Assembly (NCBI GenBank): GCA_031422675.1 | Contig: JANPMG010000009.1 | Location: forward strand, 6,750-70,749 | Length of the DNA: 64,000 bases | Source: Acidimicrobiia bacterium | GTDB taxonomy: Bacteria > Actinomycetota > Acidimicrobiia > IMCC26256 > JAENVU01 | Reading direction: 5' to 3' | Part shown: positions 10,236 through 64,000 of the stretch, piece after piece | Numbering within the stretch: the stretch's first letter is position 1 | Layout of the letters: every line of letters starts with the position of its first letter | Notes under the pieces: model-generated | The model's database searches: none | The model's input: only the letters and a program-made list of their open reading frames with translations | What the model was told of the DNA's origin: nothing | Translations under genes and position numbers: made by a program

Positions 10236-10304
10236 GTTGATTCTCCTGAACTTCAAGTCTCGGGGGTTATCGGTGGGACTGACGTGCGGGTTGGGACGGA
10301 GACG

Positions 10305-10790: not shown

Positions 10791-10822
10791 GGACGCGCGC
10801 TCTGTATGCCGGCCGATTGCAT

Positions 10823-10844
10823 GGTTCCATACATTATGGGGACC
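10823..10844. promoter_or_regulatory. candidate MarR operator
   Basis: AT-rich imperfect palindrome GGTTCCATA-CAT-TATGGGGACC just upstream of marR. Confidence 0.4.
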
Positions 10845-10886
10845 TACTGACTGGGGCAAACTGACCCGACGACTCTACTTCCGGGC

Positions 10887-12995: not shown

Positions 12996-13009
12996 GGGAG
13001 ACCAAGCCG

Positions 13010-13770: not shown

Positions 13771-13923
13771 GCGCCACGCTGCGCGAGTGCTCGCGATGAT
13801 CTCGCAGCCGAGCACCACCTCCACCGACGCAGCACTCGGCTCCGGCCGGGGCGGCCGGGGATAGTCCCAGACCGACTCTTCTCCCGGGCCGACCGGATCG
13901 CGCGCCGATCGCTCGACGTTCAC
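13767..13923 (-). pseudogene. DUF427-family protein, 5' fragment
   Basis: ESVWDYPRPP...EIIASTRAAWRV; homology then stops, with no LETxHPPxYY. Confidence 0.7.
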
Positions 13924-14111
13924 ACCGGGCGCGGGAGACGCGGCTGCGCCTCGATTTCACCGAAGCCGTCGGCGCGGTGCTCGAGCTGGAGCGTCACCTC
14001 GTCGTCGGGCTTCTCGAACGAACCGAACACGACGAAGCCGTAGAGGAACACCGCCGCGGCAACCGCAACAAAGACGACCGCGCCGATCTGGAAAATCACA
14101 CTCCGGCTCAC
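13920..14111 (-). CDS. small single-TM membrane protein
   Basis: Hydrophobic N-terminal helix; GTGA overlaps with both neighbours. Confidence 0.6.
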   Translation of the reverse strand: MSRSVIFQIGAVVFVAVAAAVFLYGFVVFGSFEKPDDEVTLQLEHRADGFGEIEAQPRLPRPV

Positions 14112-16026: not shown

Positions 16027-16470
16027 ATGCCCCGATACGAAACCAGCAATCACACACCGTGGTCCGTCGAGCGCGCCTTCGCGTACATGAGCGACCTTCG
16101 CCACTTCGAGGATTGGGATCCGGGCGTCTCTCGATCGGTCCAAGTCATCGGCACCGAGCCGCGGCTCGGCGCTGCCTACGACGTCACCGTGTCGAGTCCC
16201 GGGCCGAACCTGACCCTCCGATACGAGACAGTTGGGTTCGACGCACCCCGTCGGATCGAGGTCCGAGCCGAATCCCGTACGCTGCTCTCGATCGACACGA
16301 TCACGGTGACGCCGGACGGTGCAACCGGCGCCACTGTCACCTACGCCGCCGAGCTGTCGTTGCGCGGCACCCTCGGCATCGCCAACCCGATCTTGGGTCT
16401 GGCGTTCAATCGCATCGGCGACCGCGCCGCGCACGGACTGAGGCAGGCGATCGAGGGAACCGAGACGTGA
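16027..16470 (+). CDS. SRPBCC/START (polyketide cyclase-like) lipid-binding protein
   Basis: AFAYMSD...WDPGV, beta-rich core, C-terminal helix. Confidence 0.8.
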   Translation: MPRYETSNHTPWSVERAFAYMSDLRHFEDWDPGVSRSVQVIGTEPRLGAAYDVTVSSPGPNLTLRYETVGFDAPRRIEVRAESRTLLSIDTITVTPDGATGATVTYAAELSLRGTLGIANPILGLAFNRIGDRAAHGLRQAIEGTET

Positions 16471-17456
16471 GCACGGAGGCGGCGAACGCGCCGATGCTCG
16501 AAGAGCGCCTCGCAATGTTGGCTGCGCTGGTGAGCGGGGACGCAACGCTCGCCTACCGACTCGCGAGCGACTGTCTCGCGAATGGCGTGTCGTTCCATCG
16601 GATCGTCGACCACGTGTTGCAACCGGTGCAGGAGGATCTCGGCCACCGGTGGGCCGACGGTGAACTCGGAATCGCCGACGAACATGCGGCGACGGCTGCC
16701 GTGGAGGAGCTGTTGGTGAAGCTCGGCGCCACGGTCGAGACACCCCGCGGGCCGACGGTCGTCGTGGTCAGCGCCCCCGGCGACACCCACTCGCTCGGCC
16801 TCCGCGCCGTCTGGGGTGCGCTCGCGCTCGACGGGTTCCGTTCCGTGTACCTCGGCAGTTCGGTGCCGGCCACCGACCTGGCCGAGTTCCTCGAGTTCCA
16901 CGAGCCGCTCGCGGTCGCCCTCGGCTGCTCGATCCCGGCGGCCCTCACCGGCGCGGCCGAAGCAACCCGCGCGGCACATCGCGTCGGAGTTCCCGTACTC
17001 GGAGGTGGTCGCGCACTCCGGAACGTCGACCGCGCCACGCGGCTCGGTGTCGACGCATTCGCGCCCAACGCCGCCGAAGCCGTCACTCGATTCCGCGCCT
17101 GGACGACCGCGCCCCCCGAACACCTCGCGCCAACCCTCGAACCGATCATCGAACACCACCGACTCGCGGCGCGCGGGCCGACGTTGATCGCCGCCGCCCT
17201 CGATCGCAGCGCCATCACCGAGAGTTCTCGTACCGCCATGGCCGAAGATCTCGCCCGCCTCCTCGCGATCGTCGAAGCGGCGATCCTCCTCGACGACGCG
17301 GCAATCATCGACGAGCACCTGGCGTGGTTGCGCGACACCAGCGCCGCCCACGGAATCGATCGGAACCACGTGGACAGAACCATTCGAGATCTGGCCGACG
17401 CCCTCGACGGTGATCTGCTGCGCGCGGGCGAGTTTCTCCGATGTGCAATCGGTTGA
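16467..17456 (+). CDS. cobalamin-binding photoreceptor-type protein (CarH-like B12 module, no HTH) with C-terminal helical domain
   Basis: W-x9-EH (WADGELGIADEH), DxHxxG (DTHSLG), YLG, GG; GTG start overlaps the SRPBCC stop. Confidence 0.85.
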   Translation: MSTEAANAPMLEERLAMLAALVSGDATLAYRLASDCLANGVSFHRIVDHVLQPVQEDLGHRWADGELGIADEHAATAAVEELLVKLGATVETPRGPTVVVVSAPGDTHSLGLRAVWGALALDGFRSVYLGSSVPATDLAEFLEFHEPLAVALGCSIPAALTGAAEATRAAHRVGVPVLGGGRALRNVDRATRLGVDAFAPNAAEAVTRFRAWTTAPPEHLAPTLEPIIEHHRLAARGPTLIAAALDRSAITESSRTAMAEDLARLLAIVEAAILLDDAAIIDEHLAWLRDTSAAHGIDRNHVDRTIRDLADALDGDLLRAGEFLRCAIG

Positions 17457-17470
17457 GCGTCCGCGAGCCG

Positions 17471-18037
17471 CTACCGGTCTTCCTCCGTGAGCGCACCTCT
17501 CAGCCGCGCCAGGCCGGTGCGGATCCGACTCTTCACCGTCCCTTCCGGCTCACCCAACATCCGTGCGACCGTGCGGTAGCTGTGACCGCCGAAGTACGCG
17601 AGTTCAACGGCCCGCCGTTCGGATTCGGGGAGATCTGCGAGCGCCCGGCGCAGCGTCGTCGCCACCGAACGCGCCTCGACCTCGCCCTGCACGTCGGGCA
17701 CGGGCGTCAGTGGCTGGCGCGCCTCGCGCTCCTCACGCCGGAACCGCGCACCGTCTGCCCGCACCAGATCCAACGCTCGGCCGTGAGTGATCGCGAGCAG
17801 GAACGATCGCAACGTGCCGGTGGGCGCATCGAAGCGGTCCCACTTCTCCCACAGTCGCAGGAACACCTCCTGTGTCACCTCTTCGGCCCGCGCCTGGTCG
17901 CCGACGAGTCGACGGGCGAACGCCAGCACCGGTCCACGATGACGGCGCATGATCTCGGCCATGGCCGAGTCGTCGCCGCCTCGCAAACCCGCCACCAGGT
18001 CCGACTCCGAAACTTTCGCGATCGGCTCAGACGACAC
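17471..18037 (-). CDS. ECF RNA polymerase sigma factor, SigK-like
   Basis: AEEVTQEVFLRLW...FD, LAYFGGHSYR, GTVKSRIR; GGAGG RBS before GTG 18037. Confidence 0.9.
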   Translation of the reverse strand: MSSEPIAKVSESDLVAGLRGGDDSAMAEIMRRHRGPVLAFARRLVGDQARAEEVTQEVFLRLWEKWDRFDAPTGTLRSFLLAITHGRALDLVRADGARFRREEREARQPLTPVPDVQGEVEARSVATTLRRALADLPESERRAVELAYFGGHSYRTVARMLGEPEGTVKSRIRTGLARLRGALTEEDR

Positions 18038-18095
18038 CGGTTCCTCCCCCTCGCACACTACCGAGCGCGCCTGAATCGAACCCCGGGGGAATGTC

Positions 18096-18896
18096 ATGAA
18101 CCGTGACTCGCTCAACCCGGCCCAACCCGACGGGGACCCCGGCGGTCATGGGATCGCCCTCGCTGCGCTCCGACGCTGGAACGTCGGTTTGGCCGTACTG
18201 CATCTGGCCCAGGCGGTCGCGGTGTTGGCGCTCACCAACGCGCGGTCGCTGCCCGTCACCGCGGCCTTCGGGAACGGTCCGCCCGGTCAACCCCAAGGAC
18301 CGCTCGAGCTCGAAACTCTCTTCTCGTACCGGATCGGTTGGGCGGTAGCCGCGTTCCTGATCCTGTCGGCCGGGTTCCACGGCCTCGTCACCACCGGATG
18401 GGGATTCCGGCAGTACTCAGCCGAGATCGACGCGTCCCGAAACCGATTTCGGTGGGTCGAGTACTCGTTGTCAGCGTCGGTGATGATCGTGCTGATCGCC
18501 GGGACCGTCGGCATCACCGATGTGGCCGCGCTGCTCGGACTCTTCGCCGCGAACGCCGCGATGATTCTGTTCGGGTGGCTCATGGAAACGACGTCCCGAC
18601 CGGGCCCGGGCGCAACGTGGTCACCCTTCGTGTTCGGCTGCATCGCCGGAGCGGTCCCGTGGGCCGCGATCACGATCTATCTCGTCGGTGCCGGCGGCGA
18701 CGTTCCGGGCTTCGTCTATGGAATCTTCGTCTCGCTCTTCGTGTTCTTCAACTGTTTCGCCGCCAACCAGTTCTTGCAGTACCGGGCGCGCGGACGCTGG
18801 GCCGACTACCGCTACGGCGAACGGGTCTACATGGTGCTCAGTCTCGTAGCGAAATCGCTCCTTGCGTGGCAGGTCTTTGCCAACGTCCTCGTCTGA
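18096..18896 (+). CDS. heR: heliorhodopsin
   Basis: Seven TM helices; LHLAQ, GFH, NRFRWVEYSLSAS (counterion Glu), ERVYMVLSLVAKSLLAW (retinal-binding Lys). Confidence 0.95.
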   Translation: MNRDSLNPAQPDGDPGGHGIALAALRRWNVGLAVLHLAQAVAVLALTNARSLPVTAAFGNGPPGQPQGPLELETLFSYRIGWAVAAFLILSAGFHGLVTTGWGFRQYSAEIDASRNRFRWVEYSLSASVMIVLIAGTVGITDVAALLGLFAANAAMILFGWLMETTSRPGPGATWSPFVFGCIAGAVPWAAITIYLVGAGGDVPGFVYGIFVSLFVFFNCFAANQFLQYRARGRWADYRYGERVYMVLSLVAKSLLAWQVFANVLV

Positions 18897-25799: not shown

Positions 25800-27152
25800 C
25801 TACCCGAGCGCCGCCCCGATCTCGTCCGGCATCCAGTTGCCGTGGGCGCCGAAGGGGATCCGTTGCGGGAGCGCAATCGTGGCCACCGGCGGTGCGGCGA
25901 AGTCCTGCGCGTCGAGGATGTTGAGCGTGGTGGTCTCGCCGGCGTCCTCATGACTGAGCACGAGGATCCAACCCTCGTCCTCCGCCGCATCCGGACCGGC
26001 CGGCGCGAACACCGGCTCACCCACGTGCGTGCCCTCACCGCCGAAGGAATGCACGAGTTGCGTCCCCGCATCGAGGTCGTAACGCACCACATGCGGCGCG
26101 AAGACCGGCGACGAGCCCGGTAACAAGCCGGCGATGTAGCCGAACCGCGCCGGCAATCCCACGCGCCGATCGTCGACGCGCGGGAAGTCGCCGGTGCGAT
26201 CATCGAGTTGGGTCTCGGTCACTGTGCCGGCGACTTGGTCGATGGTCCATTGCCACAGCGAGGACTGGTCGCCCAGGTCGTCCATCCCGCCTTCCATGAG
26301 CCCGCCGGCCCGACACAGCTGAATCACGATCTCACCGCCGCGCTCGTACGAGTTGAGCGTGTGGAACACGGTGCAGGGTTCGACTTCGTACCACGTGACG
26401 TCGGCGTTCGTCCCGGTGCGAGGCATCACCCCGACCCGCGCGCCCGCATCGCGGTCGAAGCGGAACCCTCCGCGTTCCAGCGCGAACACGATGGGCAGGT
26501 CATAGAAGATCGCGTAGTGCTCGGTGATGGTGAAGTCGTGCATCATCACCGGCCGGGGAATGTCGATCACTTCGGACTGCACGAGGTTCCCATTCGCGTC
26601 GAGCCGGTGGTACGTGAGATAAGGCTCGGAGAGAAACTGGTAACCGAAGAACAGCAGCTCACCAGTGATCGGGCACCGCTTCGGATGCGCGGTCATCGGC
26701 GTGGTGAGTGCGCCGCCGAAGTCCACGCTCCCGATGGTGTCCAGGTCCGGGGTCATCTCCCACGGCAGGTGAGCTTCTTCCAACGCGAGCAGCCGACCCG
26801 CGTGGCGGATGATGTTCGTGTTCGCCGGCGACGCGCGGAGATCGCCGACGGCGCTCAAGAGATCCATATCGTGCTCGAGGTACGGAGTGCGCACGTACCG
26901 GTTGCGGTACGAGACGCGGCCGTCGCGCAGTTCGAAGCCGTGCACCATGCCGGCACCGAAGAACCAGTGGACCGGCGCCGCGCCCGGCGGGTTGAAGCCG
27001 TTCCGGAGGTACCGACCGTTGAGGGCGTCGGGCACCCGGCCCTGCACCGGAAGATCATCGATGGTCAACTCGTGCTCGATCGGCGCGTAGTTGCCCTGCA
27101 TCCACCACACCGCCGCGTGGTCGACGGTGGTCGGGGTCTGGTCCAGGCTCAT
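25800..27152 (-). CDS. carotenoid oxygenase (RPE65/CCD) family dioxygenase 1
   Basis: Four Fe-binding His: TAHPK, MMHDF, FHTLN, GAHGNW; also EPVF. Confidence 0.92.
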   Translation of the reverse strand: MSLDQTPTTVDHAAVWWMQGNYAPIEHELTIDDLPVQGRVPDALNGRYLRNGFNPPGAAPVHWFFGAGMVHGFELRDGRVSYRNRYVRTPYLEHDMDLLSAVGDLRASPANTNIIRHAGRLLALEEAHLPWEMTPDLDTIGSVDFGGALTTPMTAHPKRCPITGELLFFGYQFLSEPYLTYHRLDANGNLVQSEVIDIPRPVMMHDFTITEHYAIFYDLPIVFALERGGFRFDRDAGARVGVMPRTGTNADVTWYEVEPCTVFHTLNSYERGGEIVIQLCRAGGLMEGGMDDLGDQSSLWQWTIDQVAGTVTETQLDDRTGDFPRVDDRRVGLPARFGYIAGLLPGSSPVFAPHVVRYDLDAGTQLVHSFGGEGTHVGEPVFAPAGPDAAEDEGWILVLSHEDAGETTTLNILDAQDFAAPPVATIALPQRIPFGAHGNWMPDEIGAALG

Positions 27153-27937
27153 GGGGCTTCCTTCGGAGTTGGGGGAATGGGCGATCCCGCGCCCAGATAG
27201 CTCTTCGCCAGGCGCGCTGGGTCGGCGGCGAGTTGCGCAGCCGGTCCGTGGCTGCTCACGACGCCGCGCACGAGCACGTACGCACGGTCGGCGGTTGCGA
27301 GCGTGGCGTCCACGTGCTGTTCCACGAGGAGTACTCCCACGCCCGTGTCGCGTGCGATGGTGCGCACCATACCCAGCAGCTGTTCCACGATGATCGGCGC
27401 CAAACCGAGGCTCAGCTCGTCGATCATGAGCAACCGGGGACGGGCCACCAAGGCGCGCGCAATCGCGAGCATCTGCTGTTCCCCGCCGGACATCAAACCG
27501 GCCGGGCGGTCGAGGATCGCGGCGAGGGCCGGGAACGGCGCCAGCGCGTCGGCGATGGCCGACGCATCACCGCGCCGGGCCGCGAGCCGGAGGTGCGCGC
27601 GACCCGAAAGGCCGTAGAACAGCGCGCGCTCCTCGGGGACGTGCGCGAGGCCATGACGCGCGCGCGCCACCACCGCCTTGGCGCGCATCCGGCGCGTGAC
27701 AACCGAGATCTCGCCGAACACCTCGATCGTGCCGCCCAACTGTGGGAGCAAACCCGAGACGGTCTTGAGCACGGTGGTCTTGCCCGCGCCATTCGGACCG
27801 AGCAGCGCCACGATCTCACCGGCGCCGACCTCGAGGTCGAGCCGGTGCACGACCGGAACGCCGCGATAGCCGGCGGTGAGATCGCGCAGCACCAGCAACG
27901 GCGCGAGCACGGGCGCGGTCGGCATCGCCGCGCTCAT
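27149..27937 (-). CDS. ABC transporter ATPase, LivF-like
   Basis: GPNGAGKT, MSGGEQQM, DELSLGL. Confidence 0.92.
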   Translation of the reverse strand: MSAAMPTAPVLAPLLVLRDLTAGYRGVPVVHRLDLEVGAGEIVALLGPNGAGKTTVLKTVSGLLPQLGGTIEVFGEISVVTRRMRAKAVVARARHGLAHVPEERALFYGLSGRAHLRLAARRGDASAIADALAPFPALAAILDRPAGLMSGGEQQMLAIARALVARPRLLMIDELSLGLAPIIVEQLLGMVRTIARDTGVGVLLVEQHVDATLATADRAYVLVRGVVSSHGPAAQLAADPARLAKSYLGAGSPIPPTPKEAP

Positions 27938-28683
27938 GTACCGCCGCCGAGATACGCGGCGAGCACCGCGGGATCATCCTTGACGGTGGCGGTGGCACCG
28001 GCGGCGATCACCCGTCCGAGGTCGAGCACGGTCAAGGAGTCGGTGACGTCGAACACGAGGCTCATGTCGTGGTCCACGAGGAGCACGCCGATGTCGGCCG
28101 CACCGAGCGACCGCAGCACCGCGCCCAGCGCGGCGGTCTCGGTGGGGTCCAAGCCCGCCGCCGGTTCGTCGAGCAGGAGCAGCTTCGGATGCGAAGCAAG
28201 GGCCCGGGCCACGCCGACGAGCCGGCGCTGACCGTGCGCGAGTTCGGGCGGGCGGACCTCGGCCAGTGCTTCCATGCCCACCATGTCCAACGCGAAGTCG
28301 ACGTCGAGATCTCGCGTACCCCGCGTCGGTGCTACTGCGTCCACGAGCGACGACCACCAGCGCGGGCGATGCGCGGCAACGAGCAGGTTCTCGCGCACCG
28401 TGAGGTCGTCGAACAACTCGACGGACTGAAACGTGCGCACGAGCCCGGCGCGCGCCCGTTGGTGGGGCGGGAGATCGTCGATGCGGCGGCCGGCGAGCAC
28501 GATCGACCCGAGCGCGTTCGGGACGAAGCCGCACAACGCATCGATCATCGTGGTCTTCCCGGCGCCGTTCGGCCCGATGAGCCCCATGATCGCATCGGCT
28601 CCGACCGTGATCGACACGTCGGCGACTGCCTGCAGTCCGCCATAGGTCACGCTGAGATCACGGACGTCGAGCAGCGCGGTCAT
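27934..28683 (-). CDS. ABC transporter ATPase, LivG-like
   Basis: GPNGAGKT, RTFQ, DEPAAGL, AYLG; start at MTALLD. Confidence 0.92.
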   Translation of the reverse strand: MTALLDVRDLSVTYGGLQAVADVSITVGADAIMGLIGPNGAGKTTMIDALCGFVPNALGSIVLAGRRIDDLPPHQRARAGLVRTFQSVELFDDLTVRENLLVAAHRPRWWSSLVDAVAPTRGTRDLDVDFALDMVGMEALAEVRPPELAHGQRRLVGVARALASHPKLLLLDEPAAGLDPTETAALGAVLRSLGAADIGVLLVDHDMSLVFDVTDSLTVLDLGRVIAAGATATVKDDPAVLAAYLGGGT

Positions 28684-30665
28684 GCGCGAGCTCGCGCTCG
28701 CTCGACGAGGCGTCGCGCCCCCACGCTCAGCCCGTCGGGGAGCAGGATCACCACCGCGATCAACACGACGCCGCTCACCGCGAACTGGTAACTGGACGCC
28801 TGGGCCGTGGCACCCCCCTGGAGCTGGGTGAGAATGCCCCCCGACGCCATGAGGCCTGCGATCAGCGCCCCGCTGATCGACGCGATGCCGCCGAGATACG
28901 TGAGGGCGAGAACCGCGAGCGCACCGACGACCATGAACTGTTGCGGGGACAGGGCCGGGAGCTCGTACGCGAGGAGGGCGCCACCGATCGCGGCAAGCAG
29001 CGACGAGACCGCGAACGCGTTGAGCTTCGTGGCGCTCACGTTGATCCCGGCGGCGGCCGCGGCGCGCTCGTTGCTCCGCACCGCGAGCCAGCGCAGGCCG
29101 GTGGAGCTCCGCCGCCAGTTGGCCACGGCCAGACCACTCACGCCGAGGGCCACCAACGCGAGCACACCGAACTCGGGGCGAAAGTTGTCGCGACCAACGC
29201 CGAGAAACCCGAGGTCGATCCCGAAGAGACGGGGGCGCGGGACGTCGGTGAGTCCGTTGAGCGACGGCGAGTTGAACACCAACTGCTCGATCGCGATCGC
29301 GGCGCCGATGGTTGCAACCGCGAGCGTCATTCCCCGCACCCGTACCGCGGGCAACCCGACCAGCACCCCGACCGCCACCGTCAGCACAATGGCAAGGAGT
29401 GGCGCCCACGGAAACGCCACCCCGTTCAACGCCAACTTGGCCGTCGTGAACGCCGACAAACCGGCAAACGCATACTGCGCGAGCGAGATCTGGCCGACGT
29501 AGCCCGTGAGCACCACACTCGACAACGCGATGATCGCGGCGATGACCGACACCACGATGGCCAAGCGCCACAGTTCGTCCAGCGTGAACAACGCGACGAC
29601 GCCGAGACCGACGAGCAGCAACGTCGCAACCAGCGGTCGCCGGGGCACGGGCGACTGCGCGAGCCGCCCCTCCACCAACGCCTCCCGAGTCGGGAGCTGG
29701 GCCCCGCGGATCGAGATCGCCACGAGGATCACCACGACCGGCAACGCCTGGCGCAGGCCACCGTTCGGAAGCCAGTCGGGGAGCCAGTCGCTGCGGGCCT
29801 GGAATGTGCCGAGCGCGCTCTGAGCCATGCTGATCGCGAGCCCGGCAACCGTCACGACCGCAAAGTTGTCGAGCCGGCCGAGCAGTGCTGCGGCGAGCGC
29901 GGGCACCACGAGGAGACTGGTCTCCGTCGGTTCGAGCCGGCCCGACACTCCGGCGACGAGGATGACCGCCAGCCCGGCGAACACGGTGGCGATGACCCAG
30001 TTGAGGAAACCGAGCCGATCGGGCGAGAGGCCGATGAGCATCGCGCCGGTCTCGTGTTCGGCCGCCGCCCGGGTGGCGAGCCCGAAGCGCGTGTACCGAT
30101 ACACGATCGTCAGCACCACCGCCGCCGCGATCGCGAACCCGGCGAGCAAGAAACTCGACGTGGGCACCACCACGTCTCCGAGCCGCACGACGTCGGTCGT
30201 CAGGAGCGACTTGAGTTGGAGGGAGGCGGATCCGGCCCCGGTCTCACTCGACCGCAGCTGCATCACCGACTGGAGGTAGAGGAACACGCCGAGCGAGGCG
30301 ATGACGCGCGCGAGCGGCGGCGCGTTGCGCAGCGGCCGGAACACCAGCGCGTAGATCACCAGGCCGAGCACCGCCGCGAGTACCAGCGAGATCATGAGGG
30401 CGGTGAAGACCGTCGGCCGGTCCACGATGTGCACCCGCGACGGGAGTCCGATGATCGGCAGCACGAGATCGCCGCCACGCTCGGTGCTCGCCACATCGAA
30501 GTTCCGCATCCCGTAATACGCGAACGCGACGTACATGCCCATCGCGGCGTGCGCGAAGTTCACGACGTTCGACGCGCGGAACGTGATGACCAGACCGATC
30601 GCCAAGACGGCAATGACCGACCCGGCGCCCAGGCCAGTCAGCGATTGTTGGAAGTACGCGGAGAT
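28680..30665 (-). CDS. fused LivH-LivM ABC permease, apparent ATC start
   Basis: NFAH, GQISL, RSNERAA motifs; the first TM helix extends to ATC 30665, which follows a GAGGG RBS. Confidence 0.85.
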   Translation of the reverse strand: MSAYFQQSLTGLGAGSVIAVLAIGLVITFRASNVVNFAHAAMGMYVAFAYYGMRNFDVASTERGGDLVLPIIGLPSRVHIVDRPTVFTALMISLVLAAVLGLVIYALVFRPLRNAPPLARVIASLGVFLYLQSVMQLRSSETGAGSASLQLKSLLTTDVVRLGDVVVPTSSFLLAGFAIAAAVVLTIVYRYTRFGLATRAAAEHETGAMLIGLSPDRLGFLNWVIATVFAGLAVILVAGVSGRLEPTETSLLVVPALAAALLGRLDNFAVVTVAGLAISMAQSALGTFQARSDWLPDWLPNGGLRQALPVVVILVAISIRGAQLPTREALVEGRLAQSPVPRRPLVATLLLVGLGVVALFTLDELWRLAIVVSVIAAIIALSSVVLTGYVGQISLAQYAFAGLSAFTTAKLALNGVAFPWAPLLAIVLTVAVGVLVGLPAVRVRGMTLAVATIGAAIAIEQLVFNSPSLNGLTDVPRPRLFGIDLGFLGVGRDNFRPEFGVLALVALGVSGLAVANWRRSSTGLRWLAVRSNERAAAAAGINVSATKLNAFAVSSLLAAIGGALLAYELPALSPQQFMVVGALAVLALTYLGGIASISGALIAGLMASGGILTQLQGGATAQASSYQFAVSGVVLIAVVILLPDGLSVGARRLVERARARA

Positions 30666-30686
30666 GGTGGCCCTCGACCGTTCGGG

Positions 30687-31997
30687 TCAGCGCGCGAACG
30701 CTTGGACGTCGAGCCAGCCGGTCAGCTGGGTGATCTTCCCCTGCTTCAGCTTCCCCAAGGTCTGCTGCGGGGAGCACATCGCCCCGTAGCCCGTGAGTTG
30801 GCGGCCGTTACAGGTGTACGGGTGGCCGAAGAAACTCGGTGTGTCCTTGGACGCTCGGAACGCAGCCAGGATCGATGCCGGACTTACGTTGTCCGCACCA
30901 ATTTTTCGCAGCATCGAGTACAGGTTCATCATCGCCCGGAACGACACCGTTCCCGCGCCTTGGGCCTCGTACTGATACTTCGGACCGTACCGTTTCGCGA
31001 TCTCTTGGTAGAGCGCGTTGTCCGGGTTCTTCGAGCCGAGCTCGGCTTCGAGGTTGAAGATCGAACCCTCGGCTGCCGCACCCACCGCGTCGAGAATCTT
31101 CGGCGCCGCGCAGGCACCCGTGTACATGATCGGTGCGGTGAAGCCGATCTGTTCCGCGGTCTGCATCGCCGGTTGGCACCCGCTGTCGGCCGTCAATGCG
31201 ATCACGGCATCGGGCTTCGCCTGGGCGGCCGTGTTGAGCGCTTGCACCATGTCGCCGTTGATCGCACTCACACTGACGAGCGTCACCTCCACGTCGTGCT
31301 GTTCCATCACGCGCTTGCCGAGATTCGCCGAGTCCGTGATGGGACCGAACTCCGCGTAAATCAGCGCGATCTTCTTCGCCTTGAGCGTCTCGATCGCGTA
31401 CTGGCCCATGCCGAGCACTGCTCCCCAGGTCCCGCCACTGAACTGGAAACTCACCGGGCTGCGCGCCGCATCGAAGCTCACCGGGATACCCCCCACGTAC
31501 GGGATGCCGTTGTTCTCCAGCGTCTTGATCCCGGTGCCCCAGATGTCGATGCCACCGACGACCGCCACCACCTCGTCCGACACCATCTGCTGGGCACAGC
31601 TCTGCGACAAGTCGGCGTTGAAGTTCGTGTTGCACGTGAGCAACTCGATCGGGTGGCCGTCGACGCCGTTGAGTTCGGTGTTGATGAAGTCGACTGCCAC
31701 CTTGTCGGCGACGGTGAGCTCCGGGAACGCACCCGCGGCGCCCGTGTCCTGGTTGATCGTCCCGATCACGATCGGCGTGCCCGTCGCCCGCGTGGCGGTC
31801 TTGGGCATCACCGGTGCGAGAGACGAGCCTTTCGGAGCGCACGCCACGACCGAGACCGCGCCGTCACACTTCGTCGCCACATCATTCGAGGGCGTGGTGG
31901 ACGGCGCGCTCGTCTTGCTGGGCGTGGCTTCACTACACGCGGCACCGACGACGGCCGTCGTGAGCAGCAACGGTATGAACAGTTTGCGGATGGACAC
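30687..31997 (-). CDS. LivK-type ABC substrate-binding lipoprotein
   Basis: Lipobox GAAC; IN..LNGVDGHPIEL motif. Confidence 0.88.
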   Translation of the reverse strand: MSIRKLFIPLLLTTAVVGAACSEATPSKTSAPSTTPSNDVATKCDGAVSVVACAPKGSSLAPVMPKTATRATGTPIVIGTINQDTGAAGAFPELTVADKVAVDFINTELNGVDGHPIELLTCNTNFNADLSQSCAQQMVSDEVVAVVGGIDIWGTGIKTLENNGIPYVGGIPVSFDAARSPVSFQFSGGTWGAVLGMGQYAIETLKAKKIALIYAEFGPITDSANLGKRVMEQHDVEVTLVSVSAINGDMVQALNTAAQAKPDAVIALTADSGCQPAMQTAEQIGFTAPIMYTGACAAPKILDAVGAAAEGSIFNLEAELGSKNPDNALYQEIAKRYGPKYQYEAQGAGTVSFRAMMNLYSMLRKIGADNVSPASILAAFRASKDTPSFFGHPYTCNGRQLTGYGAMCSPQQTLGKLKQGKITQLTGWLDVQAFAR

Positions 31998-32057
31998 GAA
32001 GTTTCCCCCCGGAACAGTGGCACGTGTGACGAGCAGGTGTGACGAGTGATTCCGACC

Positions 32058-33458
32058 TCAGGACGCCGGTAGCCAGTTGCCATGAAACCCGAACGGCACT
32101 CGTTGGGAGAGTTGTACTCGCGCCACCTCTTCCATGCTGGCCGCGTCGAGCACCACGAAGTCGGTGGCAAGGGTGGTCCGGTCGGTCACGAAGTTGAGCA
32201 GCCAGCCGTCGTCCTCGTCCCGACCGGCCGGATCCGGCGCGAAGACCGCCTCGCCGCCGATGCGGTCCGCGCCGTACCCGTGCGTCTGCGCGGCCCCGGT
32301 GGTGAAGTCCACCTTGGTCACCGAGTCGAACATCCCGCCGTCGGGCCGACCGTTCGAGAACGTGGCGTAATAGCCGTAGCGGTGCGCGCGCCCCTCCATC
32401 GCCGCGGGCACCCGAGGAAAGTCCCCCGGCAGTTCGGCGATCTGCTCGTATCGGGCCGAGCGCGCGTGCAGATCCACGGTGAAGCGATGGAGCCAGGCAT
32501 CCGCATCCGCCGTCCCGCCGTCGGTCTCCAAACCGATGTCCATACGAGCGAGGCGGCACGCGTCGAGCGTTACGACCCGGCCGTCCGGGCTGGTGGACGC
32601 GTTCAGGAAGTGGAAGGCGTAGCAGGGGTCGGTGTCGATCCACACCACGTCGCGCCCGTCACCACCGCGTTTGAACACCCCGATGCGGGTCCCGTTCTCC
32701 GGTTTCCAGGTGAGCATCGGGCCACCGCGTGCGAAGGACGCGAAATCGAAGACCGCCGGCGCGTCGAGGAACACCACGTGCTGGTCGGTGACTGCGAAGT
32801 CGTGCATCATCACCGGCGCGGGCAGGTCGAGGTCGATGGTCGTGGTGACCTTGCCGCTCGCGTTGATCGCGACGTACCGCAGGTACGGCGGAACGGCGGA
32901 GTACCCGAACGCGAGCATCTCGCCGGTGACCGGATCGATCTTCGGATGCGCCGTGAATGCGCTCGTGAAGGCTCCGTCGAAGTCGTGGAGGCCGACGGTC
33001 TCGAGTTCCTCGGTCACCTCGGTGGGCGAACCCGCCTCCCACAAACACAGGATGCGCCCGGCGTGACAGACGACGTTGGTGTTGGCCACGTTCTTCATCG
33101 ACGGACCACCGGCAGTCTCTTCCGCCGTGGGGAAGTCGCCGTTCGCCATCCCGCCGTAGATCGCGGCGCCGCGTCGCATCTCCGCCGCGAGCCCCTCGGT
33201 GCGCACCCACCGGTTGCGGTAGCTCGCACCGCCGGCACCGTCGAGGGTCAACCCGTGCAGCATGCCGTCGCCGTCGAAGATGTGGTACCGACCCTTCGGC
33301 GCGAACATCGGATTCGGACCGTTCCGGAGCAACATGCCCGCCAGCCCGTCGGGCAGCTTCCCGATCACCGGGAGTGCGAGGTCATCCCGTTCGGTATCCA
33401 CCGGCGTGTATCCGCCCGAGAGGAACGGGTCATCCGTGGCGCTGATCACACTGGTCAT
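32058..33458 (-). CDS. carotenoid oxygenase family dioxygenase 2
   Basis: RNGPNP, FDGDGM, TAHPK, MMHDF, FHFLNA, GFHGNW. Confidence 0.93.
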   Translation of the reverse strand: MTSVISATDDPFLSGGYTPVDTERDDLALPVIGKLPDGLAGMLLRNGPNPMFAPKGRYHIFDGDGMLHGLTLDGAGGASYRNRWVRTEGLAAEMRRGAAIYGGMANGDFPTAEETAGGPSMKNVANTNVVCHAGRILCLWEAGSPTEVTEELETVGLHDFDGAFTSAFTAHPKIDPVTGEMLAFGYSAVPPYLRYVAINASGKVTTTIDLDLPAPVMMHDFAVTDQHVVFLDAPAVFDFASFARGGPMLTWKPENGTRIGVFKRGGDGRDVVWIDTDPCYAFHFLNASTSPDGRVVTLDACRLARMDIGLETDGGTADADAWLHRFTVDLHARSARYEQIAELPGDFPRVPAAMEGRAHRYGYYATFSNGRPDGGMFDSVTKVDFTTGAAQTHGYGADRIGGEAVFAPDPAGRDEDDGWLLNFVTDRTTLATDFVVLDAASMEEVARVQLSQRVPFGFHGNWLPAS

Positions 33459-35155
33459 ACGAGTGGTACTCCTTCATCCAGCTCGCGGGCCACGGTGCGG
33501 GCGACCGCGGCGAGATCATCCGGGAGCTCGTCGATGCGATCGAGTTCGTCGGAGAAGCGATTGCGAGCGACGGGCGGCGCGGCCTGCACGCCGGGCACCC
33601 ACGCGGAGTGCAGCACGAACGGCAACGTCATCGCACCGTCCGAAAGTGAGGCGAGCGGGCCTCGGTCCACGGCACCCGCATCGAACACGTCCACTCGGAA
33701 GCCGTCGTCCGAACAGACCGGTACCACCACGTATCCGTCGTGGCCACCCGGGTTCGAACCGGCGTGGCGGCTGTGCGCCGGGTTCGCGCCGGGGTCACGG
33801 GGCACGAAGATCGGCGACGTGGGAAAGTCCCCCAGTCCGAACTCGTGGTGCGCACTCGGTTCGAGATCCGGCATCGTCACGGACAGCAACAACGGCGCCG
33901 TCTCCGCCTCGGGCCATTCGGCGCGGTCCACGCGGTCGCCGTAGATCGCGAGCATCTTCTGAGTGATCGCCTCCGGCCGCCAGCCTTGATACACCATGTG
34001 GTGCGCGGTCGGATGCGCCGTGCCCTCGGCGCTCCAGTCCATGGCGCTGAGCTGCCGGGTCCAGAGCCATTCGGGTTGACGCAACTCGGCTCGCTGGGAG
34101 ACCGTGCCCGTTGCCGGGTCGAACTCCACCACCGTGGTTCGGTCCGGACTCATCGGAAATCCGTACAGACCACGCAGCGCCGGATCGCACGGGCGACCGA
34201 GGGCGTCGACGTCACCGGGGCCCTGCGCCATTGCGATGTCGGCATTCTCCGTGTGTTCGAACAACACCTGGATGCCGTCGGTGTCGTCGTAGCGCGCGTA
34301 GTAGTGGTTCATCTCCGGCGCGAGTTCGAACGCGACGCAGTCCACCGCGTCACCCGGCCGGGTGGACTCGAGCGCGTCCTTCCGGATCAGGTACACCGGT
34401 CCGGAACGGTTTGCCGGTTCCGTGCGATCGCCGCCGAAGAACACCTGCGGCTCCACTTTGAAGGCGCAGTCCGCAATGATCAACCACTCGCGCGTCTGGG
34501 TGATGGTGTGCACCGATTGCGGCATGACGGCGCCGGTGATCGGCCACCGCGCCAGCGGGCCTTCGCCGTCCCAGCGCACCACGTTCAACGCACCGAACTC
34601 GGTGTTGACGGTCCAGAGCACGTTCCGTTCGGGATCGATCACCGGGTGGGCCGTCGAGGTGACCATCGGCAGGAGCGGCTGGGGAAACAGTTCCATCGGC
34701 GACCACTCGGACCGGTGGCCCACCTCGCCGAGGAAGTCGAGCGTCAGGGGATCGACTTCGACCGGGCGACCGACGTCCCACGTCATGAACAACCGGTCGC
34801 CCCACGGCAGCGGTGCCGTGTTGGCCGCGTTGGTGAGCCCGAACGGAGAATGGACTCCGAGCATCGTGGGCGTGAAGACGTCTGGCCGGGCCCGGCGCAA
34901 CCGGGCCGACGGCGAATCGATCCGCCGCTGGCGCCACGCGAACGACCCCGTGGGCGCGCCGTGAGTCCCGGACGCCAATGAGAGGCGATAGGTCATACCG
35001 TCACCGAAGAACGCGTGCGGCGCGTCGAGGGTGTCGGGGTGAGGTGCGCTGATGATCAACTCACCGCTCAGGTCCTCGGGCCACACGCCGTGCGAGACGG
35101 TCAGGTCGTGGTCCACGGGATCGTCGGTCCCGAGTAACGAGCGAGGAATCGGCAT
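33455..35155 (-). CDS. divergent carotenoid oxygenase family dioxygenase 3
   Basis: GDGM, NTA, TAHP, SVHTI, MNHY, VLHSAW. Confidence 0.8.
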   Translation of the reverse strand: MPIPRSLLGTDDPVDHDLTVSHGVWPEDLSGELIISAPHPDTLDAPHAFFGDGMTYRLSLASGTHGAPTGSFAWRQRRIDSPSARLRRARPDVFTPTMLGVHSPFGLTNAANTAPLPWGDRLFMTWDVGRPVEVDPLTLDFLGEVGHRSEWSPMELFPQPLLPMVTSTAHPVIDPERNVLWTVNTEFGALNVVRWDGEGPLARWPITGAVMPQSVHTITQTREWLIIADCAFKVEPQVFFGGDRTEPANRSGPVYLIRKDALESTRPGDAVDCVAFELAPEMNHYYARYDDTDGIQVLFEHTENADIAMAQGPGDVDALGRPCDPALRGLYGFPMSPDRTTVVEFDPATGTVSQRAELRQPEWLWTRQLSAMDWSAEGTAHPTAHHMVYQGWRPEAITQKMLAIYGDRVDRAEWPEAETAPLLLSVTMPDLEPSAHHEFGLGDFPTSPIFVPRDPGANPAHSRHAGSNPGGHDGYVVVPVCSDDGFRVDVFDAGAVDRGPLASLSDGAMTLPFVLHSAWVPGVQAAPPVARNRFSDELDRIDELPDDLAAVARTVARELDEGVPLV

Positions 35156-35348
35156 CAGGGTGCTCCCAGTTCTGAATCGGTCGTACACCGGCGCGCGTCG
35201 AGTGGGTCAGACACCACAGCCCGGCGCGTGCCGAACTGCTGATCCACTTCGGCGGTAAACAGTGTAAAGTACGCGGTCGGATCGCGGCCGTCAAGCACCG
35301 ATTCCCCCGCCTCCTCGGCCGCTCCTCGGTTCCGGGTGGAGTCGGGCG

Positions 35349-39644: not shown

Positions 39645-41573
39645 TCAGCGAATTTCGAAGTCTGCGAAATCGGGGGTCTTGGTCCAGGTCCAGTAGTCGA
39701 CGAGTCGCCACGGACTGAGTCCATGGATCTCGCCGTACGCGTTCTTGAAGAACGAGTGCTTGATCGACGGTTGTGACCACACGAGGGTCTTGATTTCGGC
39801 CTGAGTCCGCGTGTGCCAGTCCTCGTACTTCGCGCGCGTCGGTTCCATCGAGCGATGCCCACCGGCGATCAGCTTCTCGATGCATTGGGTGATGTAGCGC
39901 ATCTGACATTCGGAATGGAAGATCAGACTGCCGCCGTGCGCCAGGTTCGTTCCCGGGCCGTACATACAGAAGAGGTTCGGGAACTCGGGCACCGTGATGC
40001 CGAGGTATGCGGCGGGCCGCTCACCCCATTTCGTGCGCAGGTCCAAACCGTTGCGTCCGGTGATCTCCATCGGCCACAGCACTCGAGTGGCGTGGAACCC
40101 GGTGGCGTAGACGAGGACATCGGCCGGATGGCGAACGCCGTCGGCAGTGACCACGGCATCCGACTCGATGTGGTCGATGCCCGTGCGCACCAACTCGACG
40201 TTGTCCCGGGTGAGCGTCTGCAACCAGCTCCCATTGTCCTGCAACGTGCGCTTGCCCGTCGCCGGATAGTCCGGCACCACCTTGGCGATGAGTTCGGGAT
40301 CATCACCGATCTGACTGACGATCCAATCGGTGAACATCTGACGAGTGAGGTCGTTCATCTCGCTGACCGCGGTCTGCTGGTCCGGGTAGTCCGGGTCCAC
40401 GCGCGCGGCTTCCAGGCCCTTGTCACAGCCGGGCCAGAAGATGAGGAAGCGGTACCACCGCCCGTAGAACGGCAGGTGCCGGAGCGCCCACTGCACGCCG
40501 GGCCCGACCGCCTCGTGGTAGTTCGGGTTCGGGAACATCCACTGCGCGGTGCGTTGGAACACGGTGAGGTGTTCGACGGTGGGCGCGATCGTCGGCGCGA
40601 TCTGGAATCCGCTCGCACCGGCGCCGATCATCGCCACGCGCGCGCCGGCCAGGTCCACCGAGTGGTCCCAGCACGCGGAGTGGAAGGCCGGACCGACGAA
40701 CGAATCCTGACCGTCGATCGCGGGGACGTGGGGGCGGTTGAGCTGACCGACGGCCGAGATCAGCGCCCGGGCGCCGAGGGTTTCTTCCGTCCCGTCGGCG
40801 CCGCGCACTCGGACCGACCACGTGGCGGAATCGTCGTCCCAGGAAGCACCGACCACCTCGGTATTCCACCGCACGTGGGGCTCGATCGCGTGCTTCGTCA
40901 TCACGCCCTCGAAGTAGCGCTGGAGCTCGGGCTGCTGCGCGAAGAACTCGGTCCACTGGTCGCTCGGCTCGAAGCTGTAGCAGTAGAAGTGGTTCCCCAC
41001 ATCCACGCGCGCACCGGGATAGGAGTTCTCCCACCAGGTGCCCCCGACCCCCGCGTTCTTCTCGACGATGGTGAAGGGAATGCCGGCTTCCTTCAGCCGA
41101 ATGCCGGCCAGCAGTCCCGACTGACCACATCCGACGACGACCACCGGAAACGCGTCGCGTGCTGCGGCGTCCGACGTTGCGGGGATCCGGCGCGCGTCGG
41201 CACCGTCGAGTTCCATTTCTTCGAGCATCATCGGCACGTACTCGGCGGGGACGGGTTCACAGACGAGCCACGCCATCATCTCGTGCAGGAGTTCGGCGGA
41301 GATCGGTTCCGGCTCCGGGCAGCCGCGATCGCGGTAGTCGCGGATCACCTTGGCTGCGAGCGCGCGCACCTCGGCCTTGGCCTCCTCGCTCATGTACCCC
41401 TGGACCTCGTTGAGAAAGAGCCCCTCGGGTTTCAGCCGGCCGCGAATGATCTCGGGGTCACCGGCCATGTGCACCATCGACAGCATCAAGGTGGGGATGC
41501 TGACGTCGATCAGGACCGCCGCAATCTCCGCGTCCGAGGTCTCGAACGACTCACCGGCATGTGGATTACGCAT
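39645..41573 (-). CDS. Baeyer-Villiger monooxygenase, 4-hydroxyacetophenone monooxygenase-like
   Basis: GCGQSG, GGTWWENSYPG, FVGPAFHSACWD fingerprint, GAGAS, ATGF; long N-terminal extension. Confidence 0.9.
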   Translation of the reverse strand: MRNPHAGESFETSDAEIAAVLIDVSIPTLMLSMVHMAGDPEIIRGRLKPEGLFLNEVQGYMSEEAKAEVRALAAKVIRDYRDRGCPEPEPISAELLHEMMAWLVCEPVPAEYVPMMLEEMELDGADARRIPATSDAAARDAFPVVVVGCGQSGLLAGIRLKEAGIPFTIVEKNAGVGGTWWENSYPGARVDVGNHFYCYSFEPSDQWTEFFAQQPELQRYFEGVMTKHAIEPHVRWNTEVVGASWDDDSATWSVRVRGADGTEETLGARALISAVGQLNRPHVPAIDGQDSFVGPAFHSACWDHSVDLAGARVAMIGAGASGFQIAPTIAPTVEHLTVFQRTAQWMFPNPNYHEAVGPGVQWALRHLPFYGRWYRFLIFWPGCDKGLEAARVDPDYPDQQTAVSEMNDLTRQMFTDWIVSQIGDDPELIAKVVPDYPATGKRTLQDNGSWLQTLTRDNVELVRTGIDHIESDAVVTADGVRHPADVLVYATGFHATRVLWPMEITGRNGLDLRTKWGERPAAYLGITVPEFPNLFCMYGPGTNLAHGGSLIFHSECQMRYITQCIEKLIAGGHRSMEPTRAKYEDWHTRTQAEIKTLVWSQPSIKHSFFKNAYGEIHGLSPWRLVDYWTWTKTPDFADFEIR

Positions 41574-42347
41574 TCAGATTGCGAAGCAGTTCAAGCTGAT
41601 CGCCCGATGCGCGAGGGCGTCCTGGATACCGCTGTAGACGGTGCCGTCGAGCGGGATGCTCACATGGTCCACGTACCGCAACCAGCACGGCGACTGCACC
41701 GTGACGTTCTTGTTGTTGCCGTCGTTGGCCAAGAAGCTGTTCGTGTACGGCACGATCACGGTGTCCAGCGTCGTCGCGAAGTTGGTGTAGAAGACGTTGC
41801 CGATGGTGTCGTCGCCCGCGTTGAGTTCCGCGAGGAACGACGAACCGATCGACATCTGCTGACACGAGATCACACCGATGCAGTTGCCGAGACCCAGGAG
41901 CTTCGCCAGGTTCGCGACCGCGGTGCCGTAGTTGACCGCGGCCAGGTTGACGAGACTGTCAACTTCGCTCGCGCCGCCGAGGTACTTGATGTAGTAGCGC
42001 GACACCATGCCGCCTTGGGAATGTCCGATCAGGTCGACCTTCGCCGACCCGGTCTGCGCCCGCACTCCGTCCACGAAGGTGTTCAGCGCGGCCGCGGCAT
42101 CGCGTGCGTCACCGAGTCCGGAGTTCGGGAGGCCGAAGATGAACGCCGGGTGTCCGTCGGCACGCAGCCGGGCCGCGAGCGGCGCGTAGTACACGCTCGC
42201 AAGACCCTGGCCAGCGAAGGTGCCGGCCACGATCACCACCGGATCGTTCGTGACCGCGCCCGCCGGTGCCGCCGTTCCCGACGTCACGCCCGCGAGGGCG
42301 CCCACTGCAACCACGACCGACGCGAGTACTCGCTTGAAACTGACCAC
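41574..42347 (-). CDS. secreted lipase/esterase (class 2-like)
   Basis: Signal peptide ending AGA; GHSQG; D and H of the catalytic triad. Confidence 0.85.
   Translation of the reverse strand: MVSFKRVLASVVVAVGALAGVTSGTAAPAGAVTNDPVVIVAGTFAGQGLASVYYAPLAARLRADGHPAFIFGLPNSGLGDARDAAAALNTFVDGVRAQTGSAKVDLIGHSQGGMVSRYYIKYLGGASEVDSLVNLAAVNYGTAVANLAKLLGLGNCIGVISCQQMSIGSSFLAELNAGDDTIGNVFYTNFATTLDTVIVPYTNSFLANDGNNKNVTVQSPCWLRYVDHVSIPLDGTVYSGIQDALAHRAISLNCFAI

Positions 42348-62646: not shown

Positions 62647-64000
<1,354 letters not shown>

Follow-up and report, generated by a model that had tools for sequence, protein, structure and literature searches.

What would a bacterium from a lineage without carotenoid synthesis do with three carotenoid cleavage dioxygenase (CCD)-superfamily enzymes encoded in one run with an ABC importer? 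The question is raised by positions 25800-35155 of a 64,000-nucleotide stretch of Acidimicrobiia DNA, analysed as a whole and referred to here as the window (G+C 68%), which lies on contig C9 of a metagenome-assembled genome (MAG) that is 97.7% complete and comprises 3.87 Mb in 217 contigs. The explanation that we favour, with a little better than even confidence, is that this run belongs to a conserved Acidimicrobiia module that imports and cleaves foreign apocarotenoid-like conjugated-alkene carboxylates as food, the substrate being a prediction. Relatives of the window genes were found almost exclusively in Acidimicrobiia MAGs and in two cultured Aquihabitans strains, and DNA nearly identical to the operon is present in runs labelled as freshwater sediment, sediment and soil metagenomes, with shares of 0.35-0.42 once the probable source study is set aside.

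A preliminary description of the window had recognised a minus-strand gene run, and both its gene order and its mostly 4-bp overlaps agree with the open reading frame (ORF) listing and the Pfam matches. In the order of reading, from CCD3 to CCD1, the seven same-direction genes are:

33455-35155, minus strand: CCD3, 566 aa, RPE65 (PF03055) 111.7 bits; first gene of the run
32058-33458, minus strand: CCD2, 466 aa, PF03055 443 bits; its start overlaps the CCD3 stop (ATGA)
30687-31997, minus strand: substrate-binding lipoprotein, 436 aa, Peripla_BP_6 110.7 bits
28680-30605 (TTG start, 641 aa) or 28680-30665 (ATC start, 661 aa), minus strand: fused LivH+LivM-type permease, BPD_transp_2 168.5 bits in two stretches
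27934-28683, minus strand: LivG-like ABC ATPase, 249 aa, ABC_tran 98.9 bits, BCA_ABC_TP_C 28.6 bits
27149-27937, minus strand: LivF-like ABC ATPase, 262 aa, ABC_tran 85.2 bits
25800-27152, minus strand: CCD1, 450 aa, PF03055 388.8 bits; last gene of the run

Stop and start codons overlap as ATGA at four of the six junctions (CCD3/CCD2, permease/LivG, LivG/LivF and LivF/CCD1). At the two remaining junctions a gap separates the genes: 60 nt from CCD2 to the binding protein, and 81 nt from there to the permease, or 21 nt if the permease starts at the ATC. The seven genes are predicted to be transcribed together. This tight operon, in which all seven products belong to the expected families, supports import and cleavage as its function. 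The ATG start of CCD3 at 35155 is supported by orthologues that begin with MP[IL]PRS, and there is no signal-like N-terminus in the CCD1, CCD2 or CCD3 sequences. The permease had been described as Liv-type, which it is, but it proved to be a fusion of LivH-like (residues 17-264) and LivM-like (residues 315-632) halves. Its N-terminus (ISAYFQQSLTGLG...) is conserved upstream of the first ATG, GTG or TTG (window 30603-30686), and where the orthologues at two loci (L021 and L023) have an ATG-encoded Met, the window and two others (L065 and L047) have ATC, preceded by GAGGG; the permease therefore probably starts at the rare ATC at 30665 (661 aa), a start that is probably kept in three close relatives.

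Whether importer and oxygenases belong together was judged from a search for CCD3 in one genome per species, which gave 43 loci onto which the window proteins were mapped by tblastn, an importer component being called when the binding protein or permease was at least 40% identical or an ATPase at least 50%. In 23 of these 43 an importer component is found no more than 10 kb from the CCD3 orthologue, and when only loci flanked by 5 kb or more on each side are counted the figure is 15 of 21; a canonical CCD is equally close to CCD3 in 18 of the 43. The arrangements vary, as the importer may follow CCD3 on the same strand, converge on it or lie upstream of it, and beyond the importer there is often another, distantly related gene of the CCD3 type (27-29% or 43% identity). 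A search of the host genome at E≤1e-5 gave no paralogue of the binding protein, and the permease is 31% identical to its best paralogue there, so the matches of 42-85% identity in the related loci are orthologues of this very transporter. A tree of 23 canonical CCDs (18 locus rows, those with fewer than 380 residues or with stops having been dropped, and five host copies) places CCD2 with the copies that stand directly beside CCD3, with support of 100/100 for the core and 88/88 for the wider group, and CCD1 with copies from L065 and L053 and, distantly, with a further host copy on contig C110. Both the conserved pairing and the identity of the CCD2 clade with the one adjoining CCD3 argue for a system that imports and cleaves. 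The preliminary description had proposed such an uptake-and-cleave system and held that lack of operon conservation would speak against it; the pairing is in fact conserved, with differing gene orientations, and the proposal is strengthened by an importer subfamily that travels, rearranged, with CCD3-type and canonical CCDs across Acidimicrobiia, as well as by the lack of carotenoid synthesis in the host lineage. Our literature search turned up no published description of a conserved coupling of importer and CCDs; among the papers listed, none dealt with both CCDs and Acidimicrobiia, and none was relevant to clusters of CCDs with ABC transporters in actinobacteria.

That lack of synthesis was established with phytoene/squalene synthase (PF00494), which has no match in the 97.7%-complete host genome, in a search whose positive control gave matches in 8 of 14 genomes. 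The family is likewise absent from 34 of 34 genomes of the host's family, and it occurs in 1 of the 22 CCD3-positive genomes (in pieces, in G202) versus 60 of 264 in the order. Together with the best crtI-family score in the host, 96 bits against a cut-off of 238, and the lack of any crt gene within the window, this agrees with the preliminary description, which had found no crt synthesis genes there and proposed checking the genome for crt and blh. No PF15461 or TIGR03753 match to Blh was found in the host, in searches neither of which had a valid positive control, an attempt on five relatives also having given nothing, and Blh is probably absent; type-1 rhodopsin gave no match in the host, with a control that was void. 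RPE65-family genes are found in 33 of the 34 genomes of the host's family and in 190 of the 264 of the order. Among the genomes counted, the order total for PF00494 includes two unpublished ones (G083 and G084) and that for RPE65 includes five (G083, G062, G063, G084 and G240), none of which is CCD3-positive or in the host's family. Since phytoene synthase is missing from the host, its family and nearly all CCD3-positive genomes, the substrate must come from outside. An endogenous carotenoid as substrate was considered and rejected, PF00494 being absent from host genome and family. Elsewhere in the window, at 12917-14043, Amino_oxidase matches are split over two ORFs; the part at 13315-14043 and a crtI-family-like N-terminal stretch at about 13037-13225 (43.5 bits) perhaps belong to a single gene of the flavin amine-oxidase type that is frameshifted or split, and the score does not come near the crtI cut-off.

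In order to narrow down what the importer may carry, we compared its components with curated families and solved structures. Peripla_BP_6, both BPD_transp_2 halves and LivG- and LivF-type ATPases are all present, which places it in the Liv/HAAT family. The LivG-like ATPase, whose start is fixed at 28683, scores 217.6 bits with the LivG model NF008449 (cut-off 362), and the LivF-like ATPase, which has an ATGA overlap on each side, scores 170.7 bits with the UrtE and 138.3 bits with the LivF model, both below the cut-offs. As the LivH, LivM, LivG and LivF models all match below their equivalog cut-offs, the importer is a member of the Liv/HAAT family but not the branched-chain amino acid system itself. 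At its N-terminus the binding protein carries a signal peptide with a lipobox Cys (...GAAC, followed by SE) that is invariant in 15 orthologues, as are six further Cys. It has no NCBIfam match, and its sole match by sequence in the PDB, 3td9, is weak (E 1.6e-5); with no curated family match and no close solved Leu/Ile/Val binder, it cannot be placed in LivJ/LivK.

The AlphaFold2 (AF2) model of the binding protein (predicted local distance difference test, pLDDT, 84.1) has Foldseek neighbours, at 14-19% identity, that bind Leu, aromatic acids or fatty acids. The aromatic ones are Rhodopseudomonas binders for p-coumarate, caffeate, vanillate and 4-hydroxybenzoate, and the lipid one is a Thermomonospora fatty-acid binder. 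The ligands named among the listed matches are amino acids, hydroxycinnamates, benzoates, phenylpyruvate, a 2-oxo acid, L-pyroglutamate and a fatty acid, all of them carboxylates, which is in keeping with import of a carboxylate for cleavage. The binders of Rhodopseudomonas palustris (p-coumarate, caffeate, 4-hydroxybenzoate) and Thermomonospora curvata share the fold and the transporter family, and so show that the Liv/HAAT family carries aromatic and lipid-like acids, although the window importer differs from them in its low identity (14-19%), its six extra invariant Cys and its fused permease halves.

The three oxygenases, all of which exceed the PF03055 cut-off of 27 bits, were compared with characterised enzymes by profile scores and by scores against PDB sequences. 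The four iron-ligand His that had been noted in each are at H156, H205, H264 and H437 in CCD1, at H171, H219, H283 and H459 in CCD2 and at H170, H216, H284 and H516 in CCD3, and an alignment of 25 sequences that included all three types confirms that the four columns are invariant. CCD1 and CCD2 also keep the second shell intact (E126, D322, E379 and E141, D346, E403, respectively). The best named model for both, and for the host's other canonical copies, is NF052295 (8'-apo-carotenoid 13,14-dioxygenase), with 369 bits for CCD1 and 354 bits for CCD2, although these are well short of its cut-off of 675 bits; from the model name set against a review (PMC5133782) we read NF052295 as standing for NACOX1 of Novosphingobium aromaticivorans. 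The host genome has seven RPE65 matches, three in the operon, three full copies elsewhere and one 30-residue fragment at a contig end; the copy on C110, with an ORF cut by the contig end, reaches 559.9 bits with NF052295. The rank of this model for CCD1 and CCD2, the score of the C110 copy and the missing lignostilbene dioxygenase (LSD) signature described below point to apocarotenoid-like substrates.

The surroundings of the non-operon CCD copies are also informative. Two acyl-CoA dehydrogenases, two thiolases, a CoA-transferase and a further ABC importer surround the first of them; the second has an acyl-CoA ligase and P450s as neighbours; and the third is accompanied by PhyH, a TetR regulator and a FadH-like gene of the dienoyl-CoA-reductase type, so the other host copies sit in catabolic, CoA-linked contexts, a setting that supports cleavage for food in the operon as well. 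The copy on contig C36 (L059:9664-11001 in the host genome, G000) reads 'LALWWLGG', a Trp taking the place of the second-shell Glu of the other canonical copies. It is the one among acyl-CoA dehydrogenases, a CoA-transferase and thiolases, and the importer there is a CUT1-type ABC transporter, which makes this a second CCD-plus-importer neighbourhood in the host genome.

The same enzymes could be read as serving stilbenoid or phenylpropanoid catabolism, with imported hydroxystilbene or hydroxycinnamate-type aromatics cut by oxygenases resembling lignostilbene or isoeugenol dioxygenases, a possibility that had been raised from the outset. The structural likeness of the binding protein to Liv-type binders for p-coumarate, caffeate, vanillate and 4-hydroxybenzoate fits this, as do the occurrence of near-identical DNA in sediment and soil metagenomes and substantial LSD scores (230-253 bits with NCBIfam and 175-189 bits to LsdA). 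LsdA, LSD4 and NOV1 of sphingomonads belong to the same superfamily and, according to PMC8191317, are catabolic, occur as several paralogues per genome and act on exogenous compounds. With the LSD model NF053778 (cut-off 800) CCD1 scores 229.9 and CCD2 252.7 bits, and with NF053780 (cut-off 650) 200.3 and 229 bits; we grade these as less than a third of the cut-offs, and they lie below the scores with the apocarotenoid-dioxygenase model. CCD3 reaches 30.4 bits against the LSD equivalogs, below the cut-off. The decisive columns are those of Tyr-101 and Lys-134, which hold the substrate by its 4-hydroxyl in LSD, NOV1 and LSD4 (PMC8191317): alignment to LsdA gives Met and Trp at these positions in CCD2, and in the alignment of 25 sequences CCD1 has a shortened loop and Glu there and CCD3 has Trp before its Asp. 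As the pair is missing from all three enzymes, unlike in the LSDs, with their equivalog cut-offs of 650-800 bits as against the 230-253 bits reached here, we rejected a stilbene-type assignment and consider catabolism of such aromatics by this operon very unlikely.

CCD3 is the most unusual member of the run, and where the preliminary description had counted three paralogues, there are indeed three superfamily members, but CCD3 belongs to a very divergent subfamily and is no ordinary paralogue. By sequence its only match among solved structures is a weak N-terminal one to ACO (E 8e-4). Its AF2 model, computed on an alignment (pLDDT 89.3, predicted template modelling score 0.91), matches in Foldseek ACO, LSD, VP14, NOV1, NinaB and RPE65 (E 1e-18 to 4e-22, TM 0.6-0.7), and all the PDB matches listed are CCD-family structures at 12-18% identity, so that the model predicts the seven-bladed beta-propeller fold of the CCD family. 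A conserved C-terminal extension of about 45 residues has a helix at its end.

In the canonical enzymes the His ligands are backed by acidic residues, and PMC8191317 calls the four His and three acidic partners 'remarkably conserved' in CCD enzymes, the acids forming hydrogen bonds with three of the His. The canonical counterparts Glu, Asp/Glu and Glu correspond in CCD3 and its orthologues to D127 and S447, at well-aligned columns, and to Q368, at a less certain column. Every CCD3-type sequence has Asp ('TWDVGR') at the position of ACO Glu150, and the CCD3 types have Ser ('PTSPIFVP') where the canonical 'GEPIFVP' has Glu, with Pro in one distant paralogue. Judging from the alignment, CCD3 appears to have replaced at least two of the three second-shell carboxylates, and a subfamily that keeps the His but not the carboxylate shell calls into question the generality of the 'seven conserved residues' rule of the superfamily. 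Homologues of CCD3 are common in metagenomes (of 8000 candidates scored, 641 proteins passed E≤1e-5), and the 120 matches listed are 66-92% identical and bear generic names only. In the order, 22 of 264 genomes have a member of the subfamily, as do 2 of 401 genomes sampled evenly across the phylum, namely the host and another genome of the same class; clusters of CCD3 look-alikes in a protein atlas include Pseudomonadota members. Among the sampled genomes it is thus nearly confined to Acidimicrobiia. No published description of a subfamily with this altered second shell turned up in our literature search; superfamily and transporter family are both known, while their conserved coupling and the CCD3 subfamily are apparently undescribed.

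Known systems offer both parallels to the operon and points of departure from them. Synechocystis ACO (Diox1), which forms retinal by 15,15' cleavage, has the same fold and four-His site as the CCDs of the window, Foldseek ranks ACO structures first for the CCD3 model, by sequence CCD3 has PDB hits to ACO only, and the pair Trp149-Glu150 named in the PDB titles corresponds to a Trp-acid motif common to CCD2 and CCD3. CCD3 departs from ACO in its Asp for Glu150 and its Ser for the Glu of 'GEPIFVP', at 14-16% identity, and CCD1 and CCD2 score 183 and 175 bits with ACO, no higher than with other subfamilies, a comparison of sequence scores alone. A precedent is Mycobacterium tuberculosis, an actinobacterium that, like the host, has no carotenogenic genes, and yet possesses an active carotenoid oxygenase, MtCCO (Rv0654), that acts on foreign (apo)carotenoids, according to PMC5133782; this supports import and cleavage of such compounds by the host. 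MtCCO and NACOX1, which are apocarotenoid 13,14 / carotenoid 15,15' oxygenases, are, like CCD1 and CCD2, bacterial cytoplasmic enzymes of the CCD family with four His. The accessible text of PMC5133782 does not mention an importer for either, and the gene context of these enzymes was not looked into.

For the direction of transport, the identity of the compound, the activity of the enzymes, the positions of cleavage and the fate of the products we infer the following scheme. The surface-tethered binding lipoprotein would capture an exogenous compound, probably a carboxylate with a chain of conjugated double bonds such as an apocarotenoid acid or other polyene acid, which may originate from an algal, cyanobacterial or plant pigment. 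The Liv/HAAT-type ABC transporter, with its fused LivH-LivM permease and LivG- and LivF-like ATPases, would import it, and in the cytoplasm the three non-haem-iron oxygenases of the CCD superfamily would cut C=C bonds with O2. The cleavage is predicted to yield aldehydes or ketones, which could then enter CoA-dependent oxidation.

Several observations weigh against this scheme. The importer is missing from 6 of the 21 well-flanked CCD3 loci (L019, L025, L027, L029, L046 and L051), the loci are not independent, several of them being from MAGs of close kin (L023/L024 and L047/L065), and neither an aldehyde dehydrogenase nor another follow-up enzyme is constant in the cluster, in the window and related loci. 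CCD1 and CCD2 score far below the cut-off of every named equivalog, and since they match the solved structures of plant CCD1, NCED, ACO and LSD about equally (166-242 bits), they can be assigned to no subfamily. The fold search does not tell whether the binding protein is closer to binders of amino acids, of aromatic acids or of fatty acids, so the importer may carry amino acids, and with at least two of three second-shell carboxylates lost from its sequence, CCD3 may not be an alkene-cleaving oxygenase. Alternatively, importer and oxygenases may share no substrate, the importer serving amino acids or another nutrient and the genes being held together by common regulation or a flexible region, or CCD3 may be an isomerase, a binding protein or a sensor. 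In favour of this, six of the well-flanked loci lack the importer, Leu-binding proteins are among the top structural neighbours of the binding protein, Glu is replaced by D127, by S447 and probably by Q368 in CCD3, and the superfamily includes the non-cleaving isomerase RPE65, which is among the fold matches of CCD3. However, the importer subfamily, free of paralogues, stays beside CCD3 through at least three gene arrangements, ATGA translational coupling joins importer and oxygenase genes, and the CCD3 family keeps all four His without exception, and we therefore regard this explanation, in either form, as rather unlikely.

The run lies close to a further gene that could make use of a product of carotenoid cleavage:

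18096-18896, plus strand: heliorhodopsin, PF18761 319.4 bits over the whole model (cut-off 26.7)

It is 6.9 kb from the stop codon of CCD1, in agreement with the distance of about 7 kb given in the preliminary description, and the genes in between encode an aldo-keto reductase, an enolase-superfamily protein, an SDR, an SBP_bac_1 protein, a metallo-beta-lactamase and three small ORFs. An ECF-type sigma-70 gene (17471-18115, minus strand) is divergent from heliorhodopsin with a 20-nt overlap and is followed by a 342-aa ORF without Pfam match (16341-17369, minus strand). Heliorhodopsin is found in about half of the genomes of the host's family, and the retinal source of microbes that have heliorhodopsin only is an acknowledged open question (10.1101/2021.02.01.429150, 10.1101/2021.02.16.431466, PMC7734400). 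A full de novo pathway was found in 1 of 381 heliorhodopsin-only genomes (Bulzu et al., 10.1101/2021.02.01.429150), blh is rare alongside heliorhodopsin and a pathway yet to be found was invoked (Chazan et al., 10.1101/2021.02.16.431466), and endogenous retinal was shown in an actinobacterium without blh or diox1 (Nakajima et al., PMC7734400). The host and its family match this pattern. Our literature search on carotenoid cleavage in connection with heliorhodopsin and retinal led to papers on giant viruses.

It had been suggested that the module possibly supplies heliorhodopsin with retinal. One CCD would then cut imported carotenoid breakdown products at 15,15' and so provide the chromophore that an organism lacking crt and blh could not make otherwise. 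In favour of such salvage, the host has heliorhodopsin but no PF00494, nor did it give a Blh or type-1 rhodopsin match in the searches with void controls; the RPE65-family enzymes Diox1/ACO and MtCCO are known retinal formers (PMC5133782); and the literature cited above leaves room for a new retinal source. Heliorhodopsin is 4-19 kb from the module in five genomes (the window, G107, G114, G202 and L032), with different intervening genes each time. In the home genus heliorhodopsin occurs in 10 of 10 CCD3-positive versus 4 of 9 CCD3-negative genomes, which are close kin and thus non-independent, and of which the negatives are generally less complete. In L032 (632-7022) a single 1238-aa DUF5650-repeat/HYR surface-type protein is encoded between CCD3 and heliorhodopsin on the same strand.

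The wider distribution speaks differently. Across the order heliorhodopsin accompanies CCD3 in 14 of 22 genomes and is unmatched in the other eight (G013, G142, G150, G156, G199, G217, G218 and G259), several of which are highly complete (G217 95%, G218 98%, G156 95% and G150 92%). Outside the home genus it is present in 4 of 12 CCD3-positive versus 48 of 233 CCD3-negative genomes, and in G115, G118 and G144 CCD3 and heliorhodopsin occupy separate large contigs. Both complete Aquihabitans genomes (L035 and L044) contain CCD3 and the importer but neither heliorhodopsin nor phytoene synthase, and by a hand tally RPE65 genes occur in 52 of 66 heliorhodopsin-positive versus 138 of 198 heliorhodopsin-negative genomes, which is no real enrichment. 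Moreover, three oxygenases and a dedicated ATP-driven importer seem excessive for a trace chromophore, and CCD1 and CCD2 are not specifically ACO-like. Thus the module is clearly not dedicated to retinal supply, and we consider salvage of retinal unlikely as its purpose, given its presence in heliorhodopsin-less Aquihabitans and in 8 of the 22 carriers; module and heliorhodopsin may be near each other because both lie in a flexible part of the chromosome. Retinal is possible as a by-product or side benefit. Blh/Brp, the usual prokaryotic retinal synthase (beta-carotene 15,15'-dioxygenase), would, if such salvage were real, reach the same end from an unrelated family of membrane proteins. It is a doubtful conjecture that the module is the missing retinal route of the heliorhodopsin-bearing, carotenoid-less Acidimicrobiia, with a linked oxygenase, maybe CCD3 with its altered second shell, trimming imported apocarotenoids to retinal, and with growth on the fragments as the ancestral function, kept in relatives that lost heliorhodopsin. 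In the host's family phytoene synthase is missing, while heliorhodopsin is present in about half of the genomes and RPE65-type enzymes in nearly all, so that salvaging foreign pigments is a testable route to retinal.

Returning to import and cleavage of foreign apocarotenoid-like acids as food, carotenoids and their fragments make up a large pool of organic matter whose uptake and consumption by bacteria is barely known. A conserved module of importer and oxygenases would give a genetic handle on carotenoid uptake, and the cultured strains Aquihabitans daechungensis DSM 27986 and Aquihabitans sp. McL0605 carry it.

The DNA in front of the run provides a candidate control element:

35156-35348, minus strand: candidate promoter region upstream of CCD3, 193-nt intergenic

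By eye, a putative promoter can be made out there, with TTGACG (35294-35289), a 17-nt spacer and TACTTT (35271-35266). As the consensus scan gave no promoter-like site by its own criteria, a promoter upstream of CCD3 is put forward here as an inference only. Terminator-like sites are not above chance (3 found versus a mean of 4.4 expected in shuffles). A TetR gene lies directly upstream of CCD3 in L023, L044, L053 and L063, and there is none at this place in the window, where an Amidohydro_3 gene lies beyond the 193-nt gap. Downstream of CCD1 there are three small ORFs without Pfam match.

Other parts of the window also encode enzymes of possible catabolic interest. A lipase/esterase-like hydrolase (41574-42347, minus strand) is followed downstream, with no gap in between, by a flavin monooxygenase of the FMO/Baeyer-Villiger type (39645-41573, minus strand), which has a counterpart of 89% identity in L048. 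The pairing of a monooxygenase and a hydrolase is typical of ketone breakdown, and one may speculate that this pair is linked to ketone products of CCD cleavage. An enoyl-CoA hydratase, an SDR and a thiolase form a beta-oxidation-like trio beside a MarR regulator at 7517-10859. Towards the end of the window, 60402-61772 encodes a multicopper oxidase with an N-terminal cupredoxin-like domain and 62650-63999 a GAF-GAF histidine kinase that runs off the window end.

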